27,982 nucleotides of DNA from a virus (taxonomy: Duplodnaviria; Heunggongvirae; Uroviricota; Caudoviricetes). Positions 2,187-24,809 of the stretch are shown here, piece after piece. The stretch is from IMG/VR virus record IMGVR_UViG_2850808358_000003. One strand, 5' to 3'. Made by a program: the position numbers and the translations under genes. The notes beneath the pieces are model-generated. The model worked only from the letters and a program-made list of their open reading frames with translations. It ran no database searches and had not been told where the DNA came from. Each line of letters begins with the position of its first letter. Within the stretch, counting starts at the first letter, position 1.

Positions 2187-2262
2187 TGGTGGCCCTTGCT
2201 GGATTTGAACCAGCGACCTGGCGATTATGAGTCGCTCGCTCTCACCACTGAGCTAAAGGGCC
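2187..2262 (-). tRNA. tRNA with anticodon CAU, tRNA-Ile2 (lysidine)-like, alternatively elongator Met
   Basis: Minus-strand 76 nt GGCCCTTTAGCTCAGTGGTGAGAGCGAGCGACTCATAATCGCCAGGTCGCTGGTTCAAATCCAGCAAGGGCCACCA; close to recalled E. coli ileX; anticodon loop CTCATAA. Confidence 0.8.
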
Positions 2263-2390: not shown

Positions 2391-2416
2391 GAAAAATCAA
2401 CCTTGTTACCTTGTTA
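2391..2416. repeat. three tandem 8-bp direct repeats TTGTTACC / TTGTTACC / TAGTTACC overlapping the Q-like stop codon
   Basis: Plus strand ccTTGTTACCTTGTTACCTAGTTACC directly read. Confidence 0.5.
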
Positions 2417-3235
2417 CCTAGTTACCTTTTTTAACTGCCGCTCAGCCCATGCTTCTTCAATATCAAACCGGGTCACCAGCGCATCATAAAATTTCTTAAC
2501 TGTTTTTTCCCATGACGCGCGTGTTATCTGGTTTGTCACCTCGCATATAGCATTAAATGCCTCCGTTGATGGTAGTCTTTCATAGCCACGACCACCACAA
2601 CGCTGGCAGTCTCTGATAACAGGCATACCACGTTTTACCGACTCTTCACGATGAATGGCGACACCACGCCCACGGCAATCCTTACAGGCGGTGGAAACCT
2701 CACCCTTTCCGCCACACTCCGGACAGGCAACTTTTACCACCTCCCTGACTTTTTTCCATTCTTCCCAGTAAGACGGATACACACCTTTCGTACACTTTGC
2801 CCATACCGGCGGCTTACCATCCGGATACTGGACCTTGTTTGTAAAAACTATGCTTTCAATAAATTTTTCCCCATAGCAACAAGGGCACTGCTTTTTACTC
2901 GCTGCGCTGCGGGCATAATCCTCAAAAGCGTACGAAGCCATAATGCGCATCACTACCGGTTTTATTTCTGCCGGAAGTTTTCTCAACGCCGCCACACGAT
3001 CGCACCGACTGAGTGCATAATCTGCCAGTAATTCTGTTGCCCGCGCCCTGTCATTCATACTGATGCCCATTTTCCCCAGGAACGCAGAAAAACCCATCTC
3101 AGCCCGATTCTGTGTCATGCCCTGCGCGGCCATCACATCAGTGATACTCAGCGCATCTTTTGACGTTGAGGCCGATGCATCGGTCAGGCCAGGGGATTTT
3201 GGGGAGTAGTATTTCGGTAAATCTTCCAGTTTCAT
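2414..3235 (-). CDS. Q-like late antiterminator candidate with four CxxCxGxG zinc-finger repeats (273-aa ORF; true start may be downstream)
   Basis: Position between rusA and the pR'-like promoter/tRNAs; CPCCYGEK, CPECGGKG, CKDCRGRG, CQRCGGRG motifs; family assignment by position, not verified. Confidence 0.5.
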   Translation of the reverse strand: MKLEDLPKYYSPKSPGLTDASASTSKDALSITDVMAAQGMTQNRAEMGFSAFLGKMGISMNDRARATELLADYALSRCDRVAALRKLPAEIKPVVMRIMASYAFEDYARSAASKKQCPCCYGEKFIESIVFTNKVQYPDGKPPVWAKCTKGVYPSYWEEWKKVREVVKVACPECGGKGEVSTACKDCRGRGVAIHREESVKRGMPVIRDCQRCGGRGYERLPSTEAFNAICEVTNQITRASWEKTVKKFYDALVTRFDIEEAWAERQLKKVTR

Positions 3236-3249
3236 TTTTTGACCTGCTC

Positions 3250-3607
3250 TTAATGCATTATGGGGTAAATCTTCACCCCCAGACGTCCACCAGATACTGG
3301 CTGACCACGAACGATATTGATTTCATCAAACTGCTCATCGTCCATTAACACTCCCGCATGCGTCAGCGCATCCAGCGGTGCTTTCAGGATATTGTCGCAG
3401 GTCGCGACGACGCTTATCCGGTGGCTCTGCAATCACCTTTATCGCCAGCCTTCCGGACAGGCTTAATTTCAGCCGCTGCTGGCGAACAATAAGCGCCACA
3501 GCCCGGCGATAACGCTTTCCCTCCTCCGAGATAAAATATGTGCTGCCACGGCGTCGCCAGTAAGTGTTCACCGTCGGCGGGTAAGGTAAAACCAAATCTA
3601 TGAGCAT
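3250..3607 (-). pseudogene. rusA: rusA Holliday-junction resolvase, frameshifted
   Basis: ORF 3335..3607 carries the RusA N-terminal part (...PPDKRRRDL) and ORF 3250..3432 the C-terminal part (DNILKAPLDALTHAGVLMDDEQF...) in another frame; extra C near 3396..3400. Confidence 0.75.
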
Positions 3608-3619
3608 CAGTCACCTCTT

Positions 3620-4669
3620 TTACCCAAGCACGCCAGTTGCAAAGGCGTGATCAAGAAAACGAAAAATTAAATCAACCTGAGAACCATGCTTTTCTTCGAA
3701 CGCCAGAGGATCCGCATGAAGCTCGTTGTGATGCTCCCGACACAGCGGTAGCGTGAAAATATCGTGAGATTTTGTCCCCATTCCGCCCTGACCATGACCA
3801 ATCAGGTGATGGGGATCGTCGGCTGGCTTACCACAACACGCACACGGCTGTGTCTTCACCCAGCGTTTGTATTTCTCGTTAACCCAGCGGCGACGTTTAG
3901 GTCGTTTCATGAAAGATTCCGGAGACTCAGGATCAACGGCAATGCTGACCACCGTCTTTTCCTGTGGTGGGTTCTGTTGCTGGTGGGCGTGAGGCAGCGG
4001 CGCAAGATTTTTTGTGCGCTGTTTCAGTATGCTGGTGGCGGTCTGCTCTCCCGGTACGATGTCGCTTTCACGGTACATTGAGCGGATTTTTTCCGCACGC
4101 AACCCCAGCGAACGACGTAATACCGCTTCCGGTAGCGCGTCCGCCACCTGATTGCGGACCGCCCACCAGGATAATTCAGCCAGAGATAGTTCACGCTCCT
4201 GCGTACCGCTTATTGCGTGACCGATGACGTCAATCATCCATGCTGACAGGTTTTGATGAGCAAGTTGCTCGAGTGATTCGGATGTCTGGTCACGCAGCTG
4301 GTTGTCGCAGTGCCAGCACAACACCATTGCGCCGGTACCATAACGGTGAATGACGGTTTCGCTGTGATGATAATCGCCGTGTGGCCACTGGCAGGATTTA
4401 ATATGGCGCAACAGCCAGTCAGACAATGCACCAGCACCACCAGCAGCACGAATCACCCGTGCGTTACTGAAAAACGGCAGCAATGTTTTGTCTTCCACCA
4501 GCGGCTGGCGAGCGGCAGGAACGACCCCGGACGGCAGATTACGCATGCTTTTCGGTTCCGGCTCCACCAGTAACCGGGTATTGTGGAATACCGGCATGGA
4601 TTCACGACCGGGCTTAAGGACCACCAGCCCGAGTTCCGGAACCAGAACAGGTCGAAGTAATACCCGCAC
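3620..4669 (-). CDS. ydfU: DUF968-family prophage protein (YdfU-like) with C-terminal HNH-like Cys/His motif
   Basis: 349-aa ORF; C-terminus CACCGKPADDPHHLIGHG...LCREHHNELH; GTG start as predicted; frame remains open ~75 nt upstream. Confidence 0.6.
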   Translation of the reverse strand: MRVLLRPVLVPELGLVVLKPGRESMPVFHNTRLLVEPEPKSMRNLPSGVVPAARQPLVEDKTLLPFFSNARVIRAAGGAGALSDWLLRHIKSCQWPHGDYHHSETVIHRYGTGAMVLCWHCDNQLRDQTSESLEQLAHQNLSAWMIDVIGHAISGTQERELSLAELSWWAVRNQVADALPEAVLRRSLGLRAEKIRSMYRESDIVPGEQTATSILKQRTKNLAPLPHAHQQQNPPQEKTVVSIAVDPESPESFMKRPKRRRWVNEKYKRWVKTQPCACCGKPADDPHHLIGHGQGGMGTKSHDIFTLPLCREHHNELHADPLAFEEKHGSQVDLIFRFLDHAFATGVLG

Positions 4670-4670
4670 G

Positions 4671-4949
4671 TTACCTCCAGATCCGTTGCTGGAATGTGCG
4701 GGACGGACGCGGTGGCTGTTCGGAGTAAGGGAGCCTGACGGAGATTATCCAGTGACGGTAGTCGAGGCTAAGGGCTTTTTTAACCTCGCATCCGCGCCTG
4801 CGGTAACACTGAATGAGCCATTCGGCCTGTTCTTCAGTGCATGAGGGATGCTGGTACCAGTCTGACTTAAATGCGTGAGAATACCGCTCGTGCGTGTGGG
4901 CAAGAACGGTCGAATTATCATGATTGTAATATTTTGCGTTGCGTGCCAT
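4671..4949 (-). CDS. hypothetical protein, 92 aa, immediately upstream of ydfU-like gene
   Basis: ORF MARNAKYYNHDNSTVLAHTHERYSH...; may be the 5' part of a frameshifted longer DUF968 gene. Confidence 0.35.
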   Translation of the reverse strand: MARNAKYYNHDNSTVLAHTHERYSHAFKSDWYQHPSCTEEQAEWLIQCYRRRGCEVKKALSLDYRHWIISVRLPYSEQPPRPSRTFQQRIWR

Positions 4950-5015
4950 CGGTTTTCTCCGGTGGCACGGTGTTACTCAGCGGGAGTTCAGCCCCGCGCA
5001 AGATTGTAGATGAGT

Positions 5016-5267
5016 TTATTCTTCTGAAAAAGCAGAAAAGCCAGCTTTTATTCCGATCTCTTTCAATGCCTGTAATGAAGTGACAAACTCACCGTCGCGC
5101 AAGATAAATCCGTCCGTCACTCGGGCATCCACAAAATTAATTAACGCAGCCCCATTTTTTTGCAAACACACAATGCGGTAATGACTAACAATATTTCCAT
5201 TTTCAACGCACACAGCATAGAGGCCATCTTCACAAAAAATTTTACGCAGTTCTTCGATGTTCATCAT
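5016..5267 (-). CDS. rem: Rem-like small prophage protein, 83 aa
   Basis: Translation MMNIEELRKIFCEDGLYAVCVENG... as recalled for K-12 Qin rem; position between hokD and ydfU as in Qin. Confidence 0.7.
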   Translation of the reverse strand: MMNIEELRKIFCEDGLYAVCVENGNIVSHYRIVCLQKNGAALINFVDARVTDGFILRDGEFVTSLQALKEIGIKAGFSAFSEE

Positions 5268-5389
5268 CAGAATCCTTCCAGATAAATAGCACTCCCCTGT
5301 TCGGGGTCCATCCCTCTTATCCCTGCGCGCTACTTAAGTATTTTTGATTCTATTCCGGCACCATCCAGAACTTCAAATGCGTTGAAAAT

Positions 5390-5414
5390 AAAAACAAAAA
5401 CCCGCCGAAGCGGG
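5390..5414 (-). terminator. intrinsic terminator after relB-relE-hokD operon
   Basis: Minus strand CCCGCTTCGGCGGG hairpin (UUCG loop) followed by TTTTTGTTTTT. Confidence 0.6.
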
Positions 5415-5484
5415 TTAAGTGCGGGTGCGTTGAGGATGCCTGCCACATCAGAGGTGGCGAGGGATTTCTCACTCGCCGGGTCTC

Positions 5485-6453: not shown

Positions 6454-6756
6454 ATGAGCAGAAAAACCCAACGTTACTCTAAAGAGTTCAAAGCCGAAGC
6501 TGTCAGAACGGTTCCTGAAAATCAACTTTCGATCAGTGAAGGCGCTTCCCGATTATCCCTTCCTGAAGGCACTTTAGGACAATGGGTTACCGCCGCCAGA
6601 AAAGGGCTCGGTACTCCTGGTTCCCGCACGGTGGCTGAACTGGAATCTGAAATTCTGCGACTGCGTAAGGCGTTAAATGAAGCTCGCCTTGAGCGAGATA
6701 TATTAAAAAAAGCAACAGCGTATTTTGCACAGGAGTCGCTGAAAAATACGCGTTAA
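6454..6756 (+). CDS. IS3-family transposase OrfA (copy 2; L28P and Q68R relative to copy 1)
   Basis: Same 100-aa protein as 1178..1480 with two substitutions. Confidence 0.9.
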   Translation: MSRKTQRYSKEFKAEAVRTVPENQLSISEGASRLSLPEGTLGQWVTAARKGLGTPGSRTVAELESEILRLRKALNEARLERDILKKATAYFAQESLKNTR

Positions 6757-24234: not shown

Positions 24235-24809
24235 TGGCATTCAGAATGAGTGAACAACCACGGACCATAAAAATTTATAATCTGCTGGCCGGAACTAATG
24301 AATTTATTGGTGAAGGTGATGCATATATTCCGCCTCATACAGGTCTGCCAGCAAACAGTACCGATATTGCACCGCCAGATATTCCGGCTGGCTTCGTGGC
24401 TGTTTTCAACAGTGATGAGTCATCGTGGCATCTCGTTGAAGATCATCGGGGTAAAACAGTTTATGACGTGGCGTCAGGGGACGCGTTATTTATTTCTGAA
24501 CTCGGTCCGTTACCGGAAAATGTTACCTGGTTATCGCCGGAAGGGGAGTTTCAGAAGTGGAACGGCACAGCCTGGGTGAAGGATACGGAAGCAGAAAAAC
24601 TGTTCCGGATCCGGGAGGCGGAAGAAACAAAAAACAACCTGATGCAGGTAGCCAGTGAGCATATTGCGCCGCTTCAGGATGCTGCAGATCTGGAAATTGC
24701 AACGGAGGAAGAAATCTCGTTGCTGGAAGCATGGAAAAAGTATCGGGTATTGCTGAACCGTGTTGATACGTCAACTGCACAGGATATTGAATGGCCAGCA
24801 CTGCCGTAG
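24234..24809 (+). CDS. tfa: tail fibre assembly protein Tfa
   Basis: [37 protein letters not shown]... matches lambda Tfa; start overlaps stf stop. Confidence 0.9.

Follow-up and report, generated by a model that had tools for sequence, protein, structure and literature searches.

Very probably, with the mechanism proposed below included, the interval from 3620 to 4949 holds two separate and intact genes of the nin-like (delayed-early) region of a Qin-type lambdoid prophage. Both lie on the minus strand of the window, i.e., the whole stretch of 27,982 nucleotides that was analysed. Based on homology, selection and conserved motifs, ORF92 and ydfU are ordinary neighbours: a small conserved gene is followed by the gene of a known nuclease of the YdfU/DUF968 HNH type. 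The former, 92 codons long, conserved and clearly under coding constraint, is missing between rem and ydfU in the reference annotation of Escherichia coli K-12 MG1655.

Locus and coding status of ORF92

The gene order on the minus strand is relB-relE-hokD-rem-ORF92-ydfU-rusA (pseudogene)-Q. The main features are the following.

2414..3235, minus strand: Q-type late antiterminator gene, closing the nin-like region (Pfam Antiterm, E 6.3e-55)
3250..3607, minus strand: rusA-like Holliday-junction resolvase gene downstream of ydfU, a pseudogene (Pfam RusA matches a 90-aa fragment)
3620..4669, minus strand: ydfU-like gene, intact, 349 aa, DUF968 family (Pfam DUF968, PHROG 96)
4671..4949, minus strand: ORF92, small protein gene, 92 aa, member of PHROG 1212 (homologues, pN/pS)
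4674..4871, minus strand: conserved core of ORF92, codons 27-92, a predicted β-α-β-β mini-domain and then a basic tail PRPSRTFQQRIWR
4872..4949, minus strand: N-terminal extension of ORF92, codons 1-26, found in Escherichia/Shigella only
4957..4960, minus strand: Shine-Dalgarno-like GGAG, 7 nt upstream of the ORF92 ATG, as read from the sequence
5016..5267, minus strand: rem, the upstream neighbour of ORF92 in the prophage

ORF92 runs from an ATG at 4949-4947 to a TAA at 4673-4671. After one spacer base (C, 4670), ydfU extends from a GTG at 4669-4667 to 3620. An earlier sequence-only reading of the interval had given coordinates for ORF92, the ydfU GTG and an upstream stop at 4745..4747, all of which proved exact on re-reading. 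The region was matched in 4562 of 5426 complete E. coli genomes; the gene pair is a standard component of Qin-type prophages and is present in most E. coli genomes. Some phages with the ORF92-ydfU pair lack rem. RusA and Q lie downstream here and also in 55989, MLI110 and phage vB_EcoS-813R8, and Q genes directly follow distant YdfU homologues too. Aligned to the intact E. coli 55989 and MLI110 genes, rusA bears two lesions: one nucleotide is inserted near 3397, and GAA is changed to TAA at 3252-3250. With a rusA pseudogene and IS elements nearby, the prophage is decaying, and ORF92 and ydfU may therefore have no expression at all.

Over the whole of ORF92, pN/pS is 0.229 in its own frame, while the other two frames give 1.37 and 1.46. 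Values for the core are 0.106 (codons 27-67) and 0.125 (codons 68-92). The N-terminal extension is hypervariable (variable sites by codon position 12/11/10, pN/pS 2.05) and predicted to be disordered (pLDDT ~45), and it stays in frame, its indels being of 2 aa. Homologues of ORF92 number 514 across Enterobacterales; those outside Escherichia/Shigella are 66-69 aa long and have no such extension, and the PHROG 1212 profile matches ORF92 residues 27-92 over positions 1-66 of 66 (E 3.5e-35). Conserved positions of the PHROG 1212 alignment are W31, T38, A42, L45, Y49, G53, D63, L73-P74 and W91. The AF2 model reaches a mean pLDDT of 92-94 in blocks of residues 31-70, with 39 residues at 90 or above, and according to this model the core is a confidently predicted βαββ fold of a generic type.

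ORF92 did not match any Pfam or NCBIfam family, the PADLOC defence models matched none of ORF92, YdfU and Rem, and the NCBIfam search returned no match. Three phage records label ORF92 as a 'toxin to Rem'; we found no support for this label and treat it as an annotation artefact.

The annotation of K-12 MG1655 (NC_000913.3), where ORF92 is intact and nevertheless unannotated, implies that the spacer between rem and ydfU is non-coding and ORF92 spurious. The absence of a Pfam or NCBIfam family and the lack of coding constraint over the first 26 codons would agree with this. However, the low pN/pS of the core is seen in this frame only, the ORF is kept intact among its Enterobacterales homologues, and its predicted fold is confident. 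Moreover, the Shine-Dalgarno-like GGAG and the ATG are kept in 84 of 85 loci, the indels of the extension preserve the frame, a PHROG family exists, and PGAP annotates ORF92 as a 'hypothetical protein' in other RefSeq genomes. A spurious ORF is consequently most improbable; judging from its pattern of substitutions and conservation, ORF92 genuinely codes for a protein and has a Shine-Dalgarno sequence and an ATG of its own.

The ORF92-ydfU junction

Two further features concern the boundary between the genes.

4667..4679, minus strand: putative coupling junction TGGAGG-TAA-C-GTG, with the ydfU Shine-Dalgarno sequence GGAGG at 4678-4674
4670..4747, minus strand: 25 stop-free codons in the ydfU frame with the bounding TGA (4747-4745), non-coding in that frame

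The last two codons of ORF92 (TGG AGG) contain the ydfU Shine-Dalgarno sequence, and the junction TGGAGGTAACGTG, a 13-nt core, is identical across 85 of 85 related loci. The 66-aa homologues of ORF92 have TGGGGGTGAnnATG as an equivalent junction, and an analogous W-G/R-stop-nn-ATG junction is found upstream of NinG, YbcO and RusA genes. Junction geometry thus varies among homologues, some having overlapping ATGA/TGATGA, and is still of the classical coupling arrangement. Such geometry suggests that ydfU translation would depend on ribosomes finishing ORF92 (termination-reinitiation coupling), which could keep a potentially harmful nuclease at low expression.

As the sequence-only reading had said, the ydfU frame is open upstream of its GTG, for 25 codons (4744-4670) back to the TGA at 4747-4745. 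At least 25 stop-free codons occur in the ydfU frame in 90% of codon-shuffled versions of ORF92 (P=0.90), so that the open stretch is what chance would give; no ATG, GTG or TTG occurs within it in the ydfU frame. In the 75-nt overlap pN/pS is 0.125 in the ORF92 frame versus 1.56 in the ydfU frame, and on these ratios it is solely as ORF92 codons that the overlap is under purifying selection. The more upstream ydfU starts that gene callers sometimes choose, which give 362-377 aa, are unsupported.

That same reading had also offered, as the first of two alternatives, a single frameshifted gene. On that view a frameshift would have broken an ancestral gene into ORF92 and ydfU, leaving a pseudogene; the open codons overlapping the end of ORF92, the true frameshift of the neighbouring rusA in the window and one fused database protein, P0156 (438 aa), lend it some colour. 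We reject it as exceedingly improbable because the junction is invariant, YdfU homologues start at residue 1 and ORF92 homologues stand alone. The open stretch is of chance length, without a start codon, and selected in the ORF92 frame instead; full-length YdfU homologues, even distant ones (28-52% identity, 320-370 aa), begin at query residue 1 without any N-terminal extra. ORF92 homologues occur as genes in their own right, 66-92 aa long and often beside unrelated nucleases, the independent 66-aa ones adjoining NinG, YbcO or RusA, and RefSeq annotates two genes. The hunt for longer single-ORF homologues, a check proposed with the frameshift idea, covered the best 120 of 127 ORF92 matches (E <= 0.001) and the best 120 of 1441 YdfU matches. 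Short stand-alone proteins made up all but one of these best 120 of 127 ORF92 matches, and P0156, which came from the YdfU search, is the sole ORF92-YdfU fusion among the matches listed. It is known from one contig and, comparing the two sequences, fits a 13-nt deletion creating an ATG.

A programmed +1 ribosomal frameshift near the ORF92 stop, adding an ORF92-YdfU fusion to the two separate products, appears hardly credible either. The Shine-Dalgarno-like GGAGG directly before the stop, with ydfU in the +1 frame, superficially recalls prfB. The site nevertheless has no slippery codon, AGG precedes the stop and re-pairing on GGT is disfavoured, as we read the sequence, and GGAGG overlaps the P-site codon rather than lying ~3 nt upstream of it. 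Homologous junctions vary yet stay of the classical coupling type, and the 75-nt overlap is without constraint in the ydfU frame. Two separate genes remain the preferred reading.

The predicted His-Me finger core of YdfU

Within YdfU three regions can be delineated.

4199..4669, minus strand: N-terminal domain, about residues 1-157, without a Pfam family
3632..4192, minus strand: region matched by Pfam DUF968, residues 160-346, including a linker (~198-263)
3704..3856, minus strand: predicted His-Me finger (HNH, ββα-metal) core, residues 272-322 (hhalign to the YbcO family, conserved columns)

YdfU matches Pfam DUF968 (PF06147) over model positions 1-171 of 171 (E 2.6e-76, 255.9 bits, gathering cutoff 27.8) and, over its full length, PHROG 96 'HNH endonuclease' (E 3.9e-174); several other HNH PHROGs match as well. 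YdfU shares 98% identity with cluster P0123, likewise 349 aa long, and 3068 homologues were found. The N-terminal domain, of which residues 2-135 are matched by PHROG 11007, contains, according to the family alignment, two invariant Cys residues (C93, C118) and an L-C-W-H-x-D-N motif. The linker at about residues 198-263 is variable and predicted to be disordered.

The C-terminal Cys/His cluster to which the sequence-only reading had drawn attention is real and constitutes the conserved core of the family. A 28-sequence alignment reveals conservation of C276, C279, D285-P-H287-H288, D303, C310, H313-H314 and H318. D285-P-H287-H288 and H314/H318, which lie in conserved columns and align with A-H32 and C57-H58...D62 of YbcO/3g27, provide the residues expected of the superfamily, a catalytic His where β1 ends and a metal-binding one (His or Asn) in the α-helix. 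C276-x2-C279 together with C310-x2-H313 gives the zinc site of the zinc-finger HNH subclass, the fourth Zn ligand being Cys in most YdfU homologues and His in the Escherichia clade. Profile comparison of the C-terminal domain, which had been suggested along with the cluster, bore it out: hhalign aligned residues 272-322 with the YbcO family including PDB 3g27 (YbcO 9-66) with a probability of 91.5% (E 8.8e-7), the zinc ligands and the HH/H motif being preserved. The match to HNHc_6 is weak (E 1.1e-4, score 22.3, under the gathering score of 26.6).

The AF2 model of YdfU, built with 59 close homologues, places strands at 285-288 and 306-309 and a helix at 311-319, with a whole-model pLDDT of 54.6 (~80 for residues 271-280 and 311-349, 64 for 281-290 and <50 for 290-304). 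Foldseek of this poor model against the PDB gave nothing with E<1, and searches of the PDB sequences with the single YdfU sequence and with the 28-sequence profile HMM gave no match even at E<=10. Consequently, the fold assignment rests on the profile-profile comparison and on motif conservation. By these, YdfU belongs, within the His-Me finger (HNH, ββα-metal) nucleases, to the DUF968 branch, and its predicted catalytic and zinc residues are intact. The earlier proposal of two genes with an HNH-like motif is upheld by the separate ORF92 and YdfU homologues, and its HNH part is already in the literature rather than new, YdfU having been classed in His-Me finger group 7 (Jablonska et al. 2017, PMC5714182).

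Two other leads on the N-terminal domain were pursued. Its C93...HH...LCWHCDN was considered as a duplicated degenerate HNH and rejected (hhalign of the N- versus the C-terminal part, probability 0.6%). YdfU 'fusions' of 400-800 aa are uninformative; judged by their C-terminal sequences, they look like chimeras with structural proteins of phages (tail fibre, host-specificity or portal-like) that probably arose by prophage deletion. We found no experimental work on YdfU or ORF92 in the literature. A paper dealing with the poorly characterised 'y-ome' of E. coli reportedly mentions YdfU.

In the mechanism that we propose, the zinc site C276/C279/C310/H313 would hold the ββα fold, H288 would be the general base and H318 (with D303/H314) would hold the metal, while the N-terminal domain of ~155 aa would supply DNA-substrate binding or oligomerisation. 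YdfU would cut branched recombination/replication intermediates in phage growth, a substrate suggested by gene position and by λ Rap/NinG. It would thus fill the NinG/Rap or YbcO slot of other lambdoid phages, beside RusA and just before Q.

Junction nucleases beside ORF92 homologues and known systems

Directly after the small gene comes a junction nuclease gene in 47 of 51 species-level loci: NinG in 21 (plus one starting ~230 nt further downstream), DUF968 in 8, YbcO in 6, YbcO-like in 5 and RusA in 7. The small gene hence stands with NinG, YbcO or RusA instead of YdfU in ~40 of the 51. Within 2 kb of distant YdfU homologues it was found at 0 of 105 loci, the positive control giving 55 of 55, and the ORF92-YdfU pairing is consequently positional, not obligate. 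These loci do not display the co-occurrence of an obligate nuclease-partner pair of the toxin-immunity kind. Of the 'two-gene module' put forward earlier, the two genes stand, but 'module' is overstated.

A true two-gene module would make ORF92 a dedicated nuclease partner (an inhibitor/immunity protein, a chaperone or a DNA-targeting subunit). This is suggested by the nuclease that directly follows the small gene in those 47 loci of different species, by coupling-type junctions, by an upstream neighbour that varies (Rem, hok, DUF1367/NinB-like, exonuclease) over a constant downstream nuclease slot, and by two in-frame natural fusions, P0156 (YdfU) and L037 (YbcO). We nonetheless consider it unlikely. 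The small gene is missing at the distant YdfU loci, and co-evolution with any single nuclease family is not seen, as one consensus type of small protein is found paired with NinG, YbcO or RusA. λ is absent from the 59 phage records matching ORF92, DLP12 has NinE and not an ORF92-type protein upstream of YbcO, and Erwinia phage vB_EhrS_59 has ninF and a gene for a methyltransferase separating the small gene from ninG. Lambdoid nin regions keep their gene order in any case, both fusions are known from one contig each (that of L037 being one extra G in a G-run), no PADLOC model matches, and the βαββ fold is generic.

As an ordinary neighbour of ydfU, ORF92 would be a small βαββ protein with a basic tail within the same recombination-gene block, probably a non-essential accessory factor (DNA-binding or nuclease-modulating). 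That PHROG 1212 proteins are general accessory factors for the junction nucleases NinG, YbcO, YdfU and RusA of enterobacterial lambdoid phages is a tentative and rather doubtful extension; they might bind branched DNA or tune nuclease activity or dosage. If true, such a role would explain why the small gene is almost always immediately upstream of a nuclease with a coupling junction. For the recombination-gene block of phages, the family thus offers a candidate accessory protein that could readily be tested.

Several known systems invite comparison. The Orf-HNH fusions of Gram-positive phages (Listeria, φETA Orf20), now Pfam HNHc_6 (Curtis et al. 2014, PMC4118853), share with YdfU a C-terminal zinc-finger HNH motif, though the HNHc_6 match is below its cutoff, and the general concept, in which an HNH with a link to recombination is coupled to a DNA-handling domain at the N-terminus; unlike theirs, the N-terminal domain of YdfU has no Orf/NinB similarity detectable in the searches run. 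The best functional analogy is λ NinG/Rap (PF05766), a structure-specific recombination endonuclease and His-Me finger nuclease of the nin region encoded just before Q (PMC5714182, PMC4118853). In Gifsy-2, as in many prophages of enterobacteria, an ORF92 homologue lies ahead of NinG. YdfU does not match the NinG profile at E<=0.1, and genuine NinG neighbours of ORF92 homologues match it at E 4e-83. By analogy YdfU may work like Rap, but it is not a member of the NinG/Rap family, and the known biochemical activity is that of Rap.

ORF92 residues 27-92 are homologous (33-48% identity) to Gifsy-2 STM1021.1n, mEp237_051, phiES15 gp17, PY54 ORF47 and N15 Orf QD1, the last being the only significant structural match to the ORF92 model. 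These nin-region proteins of PHROG 1212 share the W, T, A, L, Y, G, D, LP and W positions with ORF92; the difference is that ORF92 adds a 26-residue unconstrained N-terminal extension to the 66-69 aa of its relatives. Like NinE (PF05322) of λ and DLP12, ORF92 is a small gene of the kind found between an Orf/NinB-like gene and a nuclease gene. An identity with NinE was considered and rejected, the two not being homologous (hhalign probability 0.13%, no Pfam match).

YbcO (DUF1364, PF07102; PDB 3g27) of DLP12 and phage 82 has a homologous Zn-stabilised ββα-metal core, a connection that plain HMM searches did not find, and YdfU occupies the same slot before rusA and Q. In mEp237 and phiES15 YbcO is also preceded by an ORF92 homologue. 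Unlike YbcO, which at 96 aa consists of the nuclease core only, YdfU adds the ~155-aa N-terminal domain and a long linker. Closest of all is YdfU of the K-12 prophage Qin (b1560), with the same length of 349 aa, the same motifs, ~86% identity to K-12-type sequences and the same order rem-(ORF92)-ydfU-Q. K-12 Qin has no rusA between ydfU and Q, whereas here rusA is present but inactivated. Judged by sequence and gene order, the ydfU described here is the K-12 Qin ydfU gene in a sister prophage.

Gene order and the ORF92-ydfU junction

The segment under study belongs to a Qin-type lambdoid prophage carried on the minus strand, organized as follows.

Genes of the prophage segment
6238-5999, minus strand: relB
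5999-5712, minus strand: relE
5640-5485, minus strand: hokD
5267-5016, minus strand: rem
4949-4671, minus strand: ORF92, with a 26-codon N-terminal extension (4872-4949)
4669-3620, minus strand: ydfU-like gene
3607-3250, minus strand: rusA-like gene, disrupted
3235-2414, minus strand: Q antiterminator
2010-2086 and 2187-2262, minus strand: tRNA-Arg(TCT) and a CAT-anticodon tRNA, just downstream of Q

Positions 3300-5300 share 98-98.6% identity with the closest complete E. coli genomes, in which the RefSeq annotation runs from 'protein Rem' through a 'hypothetical protein' of 92 aa and a 'DUF968 domain-containing protein' of 349 aa to RusA and an antitermination protein. At the protein level, the best matches carry the name Shigella flexneri. 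K-12 MG1655 (NC_000913.3, 1644306-1644584; 4307-4585, minus strand, of our locus L003) also has an intact 92-codon ORF92 homologue in the interval from rem to ydfU; the reference record leaves it unannotated, and PGAP-annotated genomes list it as a 'hypothetical protein'. The tRNA arrangement downstream of Q is that of related prophages, the CAT-anticodon tRNA being Met according to ARAGORN and its E. coli 55989 equivalent being annotated tRNA-Ile.

The sequence-only reading proposed that ORF92 and ydfU could be one frameshifted gene. Its coordinates proved exact: the ORF92 TAA (4673-4671) is followed by a single C and the ydfU GTG (4669), and upstream of this GTG the ydfU frame meets no stop for 25 codons, until a TGA at 4747-4745. 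This open stretch is a genuine observation but an uninformative one. It contains no ATG, GTG or TTG, and it is not unusual, since the ydfU frame is free of stops over 25 or more codons in 90% of ORF92 codon shuffles.

ORF92 and ydfU are two genes, and five independent lines agree on this. All 85 related loci, drawn from genomes of E. coli, from phages and from viral contigs, share one and the same junction, TGGAGG-TAA-C-GTG, in which the ydfU Shine-Dalgarno sequence lies within the 3' end of ORF92. Among 33 distinct ORF92 alleles, pN/pS over the last 25 codons, which form the overlap, is 0.125 in the ORF92 frame versus 1.56 in the ydfU frame (0.106 versus 3.6 for codons 27-67); the frame in use across the overlap is therefore that of ORF92. 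YdfU relatives numbered 3068 in an exhaustive profile-free search; those of full length (320-370 aa, at least 28% identity) align their own residue 1 with that of the query, conserve an M-[RK]-x-L-L start and carry no additional N-terminal sequence of ~90 residues. Nearly all of the 127 ORF92 relatives measure 90-92 aa, and a profile search gave 514 across Enterobacterales, mostly of 66-69 aa. With an invariant junction, constraint in the ORF92 frame only, relatives starting at residue 1 and stand-alone ORF92 relatives, the single-gene idea is wrong.

Longer homologues were sought among the best 120 matches of each search (127 for ORF92 and 1441 for YdfU in all). The sole ORF92-YdfU fusion among them is protein cluster P0156 (438 aa), known from one contig and the fifth line for two genes: its sequence across the join, ...TFQQR-MRVLL..., fits the product expected from a 13-nt deletion spanning the junction. 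Of the other longer 'YdfU' proteins, some (362-377 aa) owe their extra length to gene callers running on into the open stretch, others contain internal duplications, and a third group looks chimeric, joined to phage structural genes such as those for tail fibre or portal. A programmed +1 frameshift at the junction is unlikely: by our own reading the junction has no slippery codon, and its geometry varies among homologues while the coupling arrangement is kept throughout. We propose that transcription arrives from upstream as part of a delayed-early nin-type operon and that ribosomes ending ORF92 would reinitiate at the ydfU GTG. A strong intrinsic-terminator-like hairpin (AACCCGC-TTCG-GCGGGTT, then a T-run) lies between hokD and rem (5399-5416, minus strand), and a weak promoter-like site precedes rem (5376-5347, minus strand).

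A separate YdfU variant, P0140 (441 aa, two contigs), has its first ~13 residues swapped for a ~100-aa HTH-containing part matching Pfam Sigma70_r4_2; in some prophages ydfU is thus preceded by, or fused to, another gene.

The two proteins

The HNH-like motif noticed in the YdfU C-terminus is right, and its nature was already known: DUF968 has been grouped with DUF1364/YbcO in His-Me finger group 7, where Qin YdfU is named and RusA and Q are noted as its neighbours (PMC5714182). Residues 160-346 match Pfam DUF968 (E 2.6e-76) and the full length matches PHROG 96 'HNH endonuclease'. Alignment of 28 diverse full-length homologues gives the conserved core ...QPCxxCG..ADDPHHxIGHGxGGMGxKAHDLFxxPLCRxCHxELH..., which is intact in the window protein (C276, C279, H287, H288, D303, C310, H313, H314 and H318; position 313 is Cys in most relatives). 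Profile-profile comparison of residues 272-322 retrieved the YbcO family (probability 91.5%, E 8.8e-7), which takes in the solved structure 3g27, near-identical to mEp237_052; the alignment pairs the zinc ligands and the catalytic His, reproducing the published grouping (PMC5714182). Since the AlphaFold model is poor (pLDDT 54.6) and fold and PDB-sequence searches with YdfU gave no matches, support for the fold comes from homology instead of from a good model. A second conserved region, separate from this core, spans the N-terminal ~155 residues (invariant C93 and C118, L-C-W-H-x-D-N motif) and could be assigned to no family; a test for an internal duplicate of the HNH unit there was negative. 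YdfU would cut DNA by a zinc-braced ββα-metal site, and by analogy with Rap/NinG and from its position beside RusA and before Q, it probably acts on branched intermediates of recombination or replication.

Residues 27-92 of ORF92 match PHROG 1212 (E 3.5e-35), and ORF92 belongs to no family in Pfam, NCBIfam or PADLOC. From a 106-sequence alignment, AlphaFold2 predicts a confident core (mean pLDDT 92-94, residues 31-70) in the order β28-33, α39-52, β55-60, β67-75, and a low-confidence basic tail, ...PRPSRTFQQRIWR. The protein would be a small accessory, one that probably binds nucleic acid or protein. Its residues 1-26, predicted to be disordered, are present in Escherichia/Shigella only; their codons tolerate 2-aa indels with the frame kept, vary about equally at the three codon positions (12/11/10 sites) and have a pN/pS of 2.05, indicating a leader without coding constraint. 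A GGAG lies 7 nt upstream of the ATG in 84 of 85 loci. Most simply, the ancestral start would have been lost and translation would now begin at an ATG further upstream, which added this leader, in what looks like a start codon migration of the Escherichia/Shigella lineage.

Two phage records (ON470619.1 and ON470583.1; matches H37 and H39) label ORF92 homologues 'toxin to Rem'. We found no source backing this label, which looks like an annotation artefact as rem is absent from ON470619.1, the record checked.

Decay of the window prophage

Comparison with E. coli 55989 and MLI110, whose intact genes encode 124 aa, shows that the rusA-like gene for a Holliday-junction resolvase is a pseudogene: it has gained a C near 3397 (GACCTG-C-GACAA) and ends in a premature stop (GAA to TAA, 3252-3250); the block is thus decaying here. 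A 100-aa ORF adjoining relB (6454-6756, plus strand) is presumably an IS3-family transposase orfA, and 24577-24775 (plus strand) matches the Rfam IS009 RNA (220.9 bits). Insertion sequences of this sort would be in keeping with a decaying prophage of Shigella-like type.

A conserved position rather than an obligate module

The same type of small protein is paired with different nucleases. It lies directly upstream of NinG in Gifsy-2 and Edwardsiella GF-2, of YbcO in mEp237 and phiES15, and of YdfU in E. coli phages and one Klebsiella genome.

Gene following the small gene in 51 loci from different species genomes
NinG: 21 loci, plus one starting ~230 nt further downstream
DUF968: 8 loci
RusA: 7 loci, with DUF968 next in 3 of them
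YbcO: 6 loci
YbcO-like: 5 loci
Unknown: 1 locus
Q: 1 locus
Nothing: 1 locus

The gene upstream varies and is often DUF1367 (NinB/Orf-like). Where the downstream gene starts with ATG, the junction is of the coupling type TGGGGG-TGA-nn-ATG, the conserved terminal Trp-Gly/Arg codons of the small protein being also the Shine-Dalgarno sequence of the next gene. In L004, L005, L007 and L210-L251, the junction TGGGGGTGA-nn-ATG recurs at position ~2690-2710 before NinG, YbcO, YbcO-like and RusA genes (GTG instead for rusA), the ATG-started nuclease genes running on as ATGGC. It could act as an SD/coupling signal and, at the same time, as a common joint at which mosaic nin modules recombine.

Locus L037 (IMGVR_UViG_2657245512_000007, 2501-3000) encodes a 166-aa protein in which the small protein and a YbcO-type nuclease are fused in frame. 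A single additional G in the junction G-run causes the fusion, and this G is either a true mutation or a sequencing error in the homopolymer. In L220-L222, L225 and L247, a 93-97-aa Cys/His protein (…CVLCG…AHRNEG…C..CH…) directly follows the small gene; it aligns with YbcO, matches Pfam YbcO below threshold only (E 3.4e-4, 21 bits, cutoff 29.9) and seems to represent a divergent YbcO-like HNH subfamily that is as yet unclassified.

Of the two-gene module suggested from sequence, the two genes hold, given the invariant junction and frame-specific constraint, but the obligate link does not: an HMM that recovered the small gene in 55/55 control loci found it within 2 kb in none of 105 viral loci with distant YdfU homologues, where YdfU follows antirepressor-like, methyltransferase or RusA genes and directly precedes Q. 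A direct functional partnership of small protein and nuclease is improbable in our estimation. The ORF92-ydfU pair is ordinary, and is best read as a conserved position, with translational coupling, in the recombination-gene block of enterobacterial lambdoid phages. The varied nucleases downstream and the missing reverse association argue for such positional pairing, as does DLP12, where the same slot is occupied by NinE, which is unrelated to the small protein.
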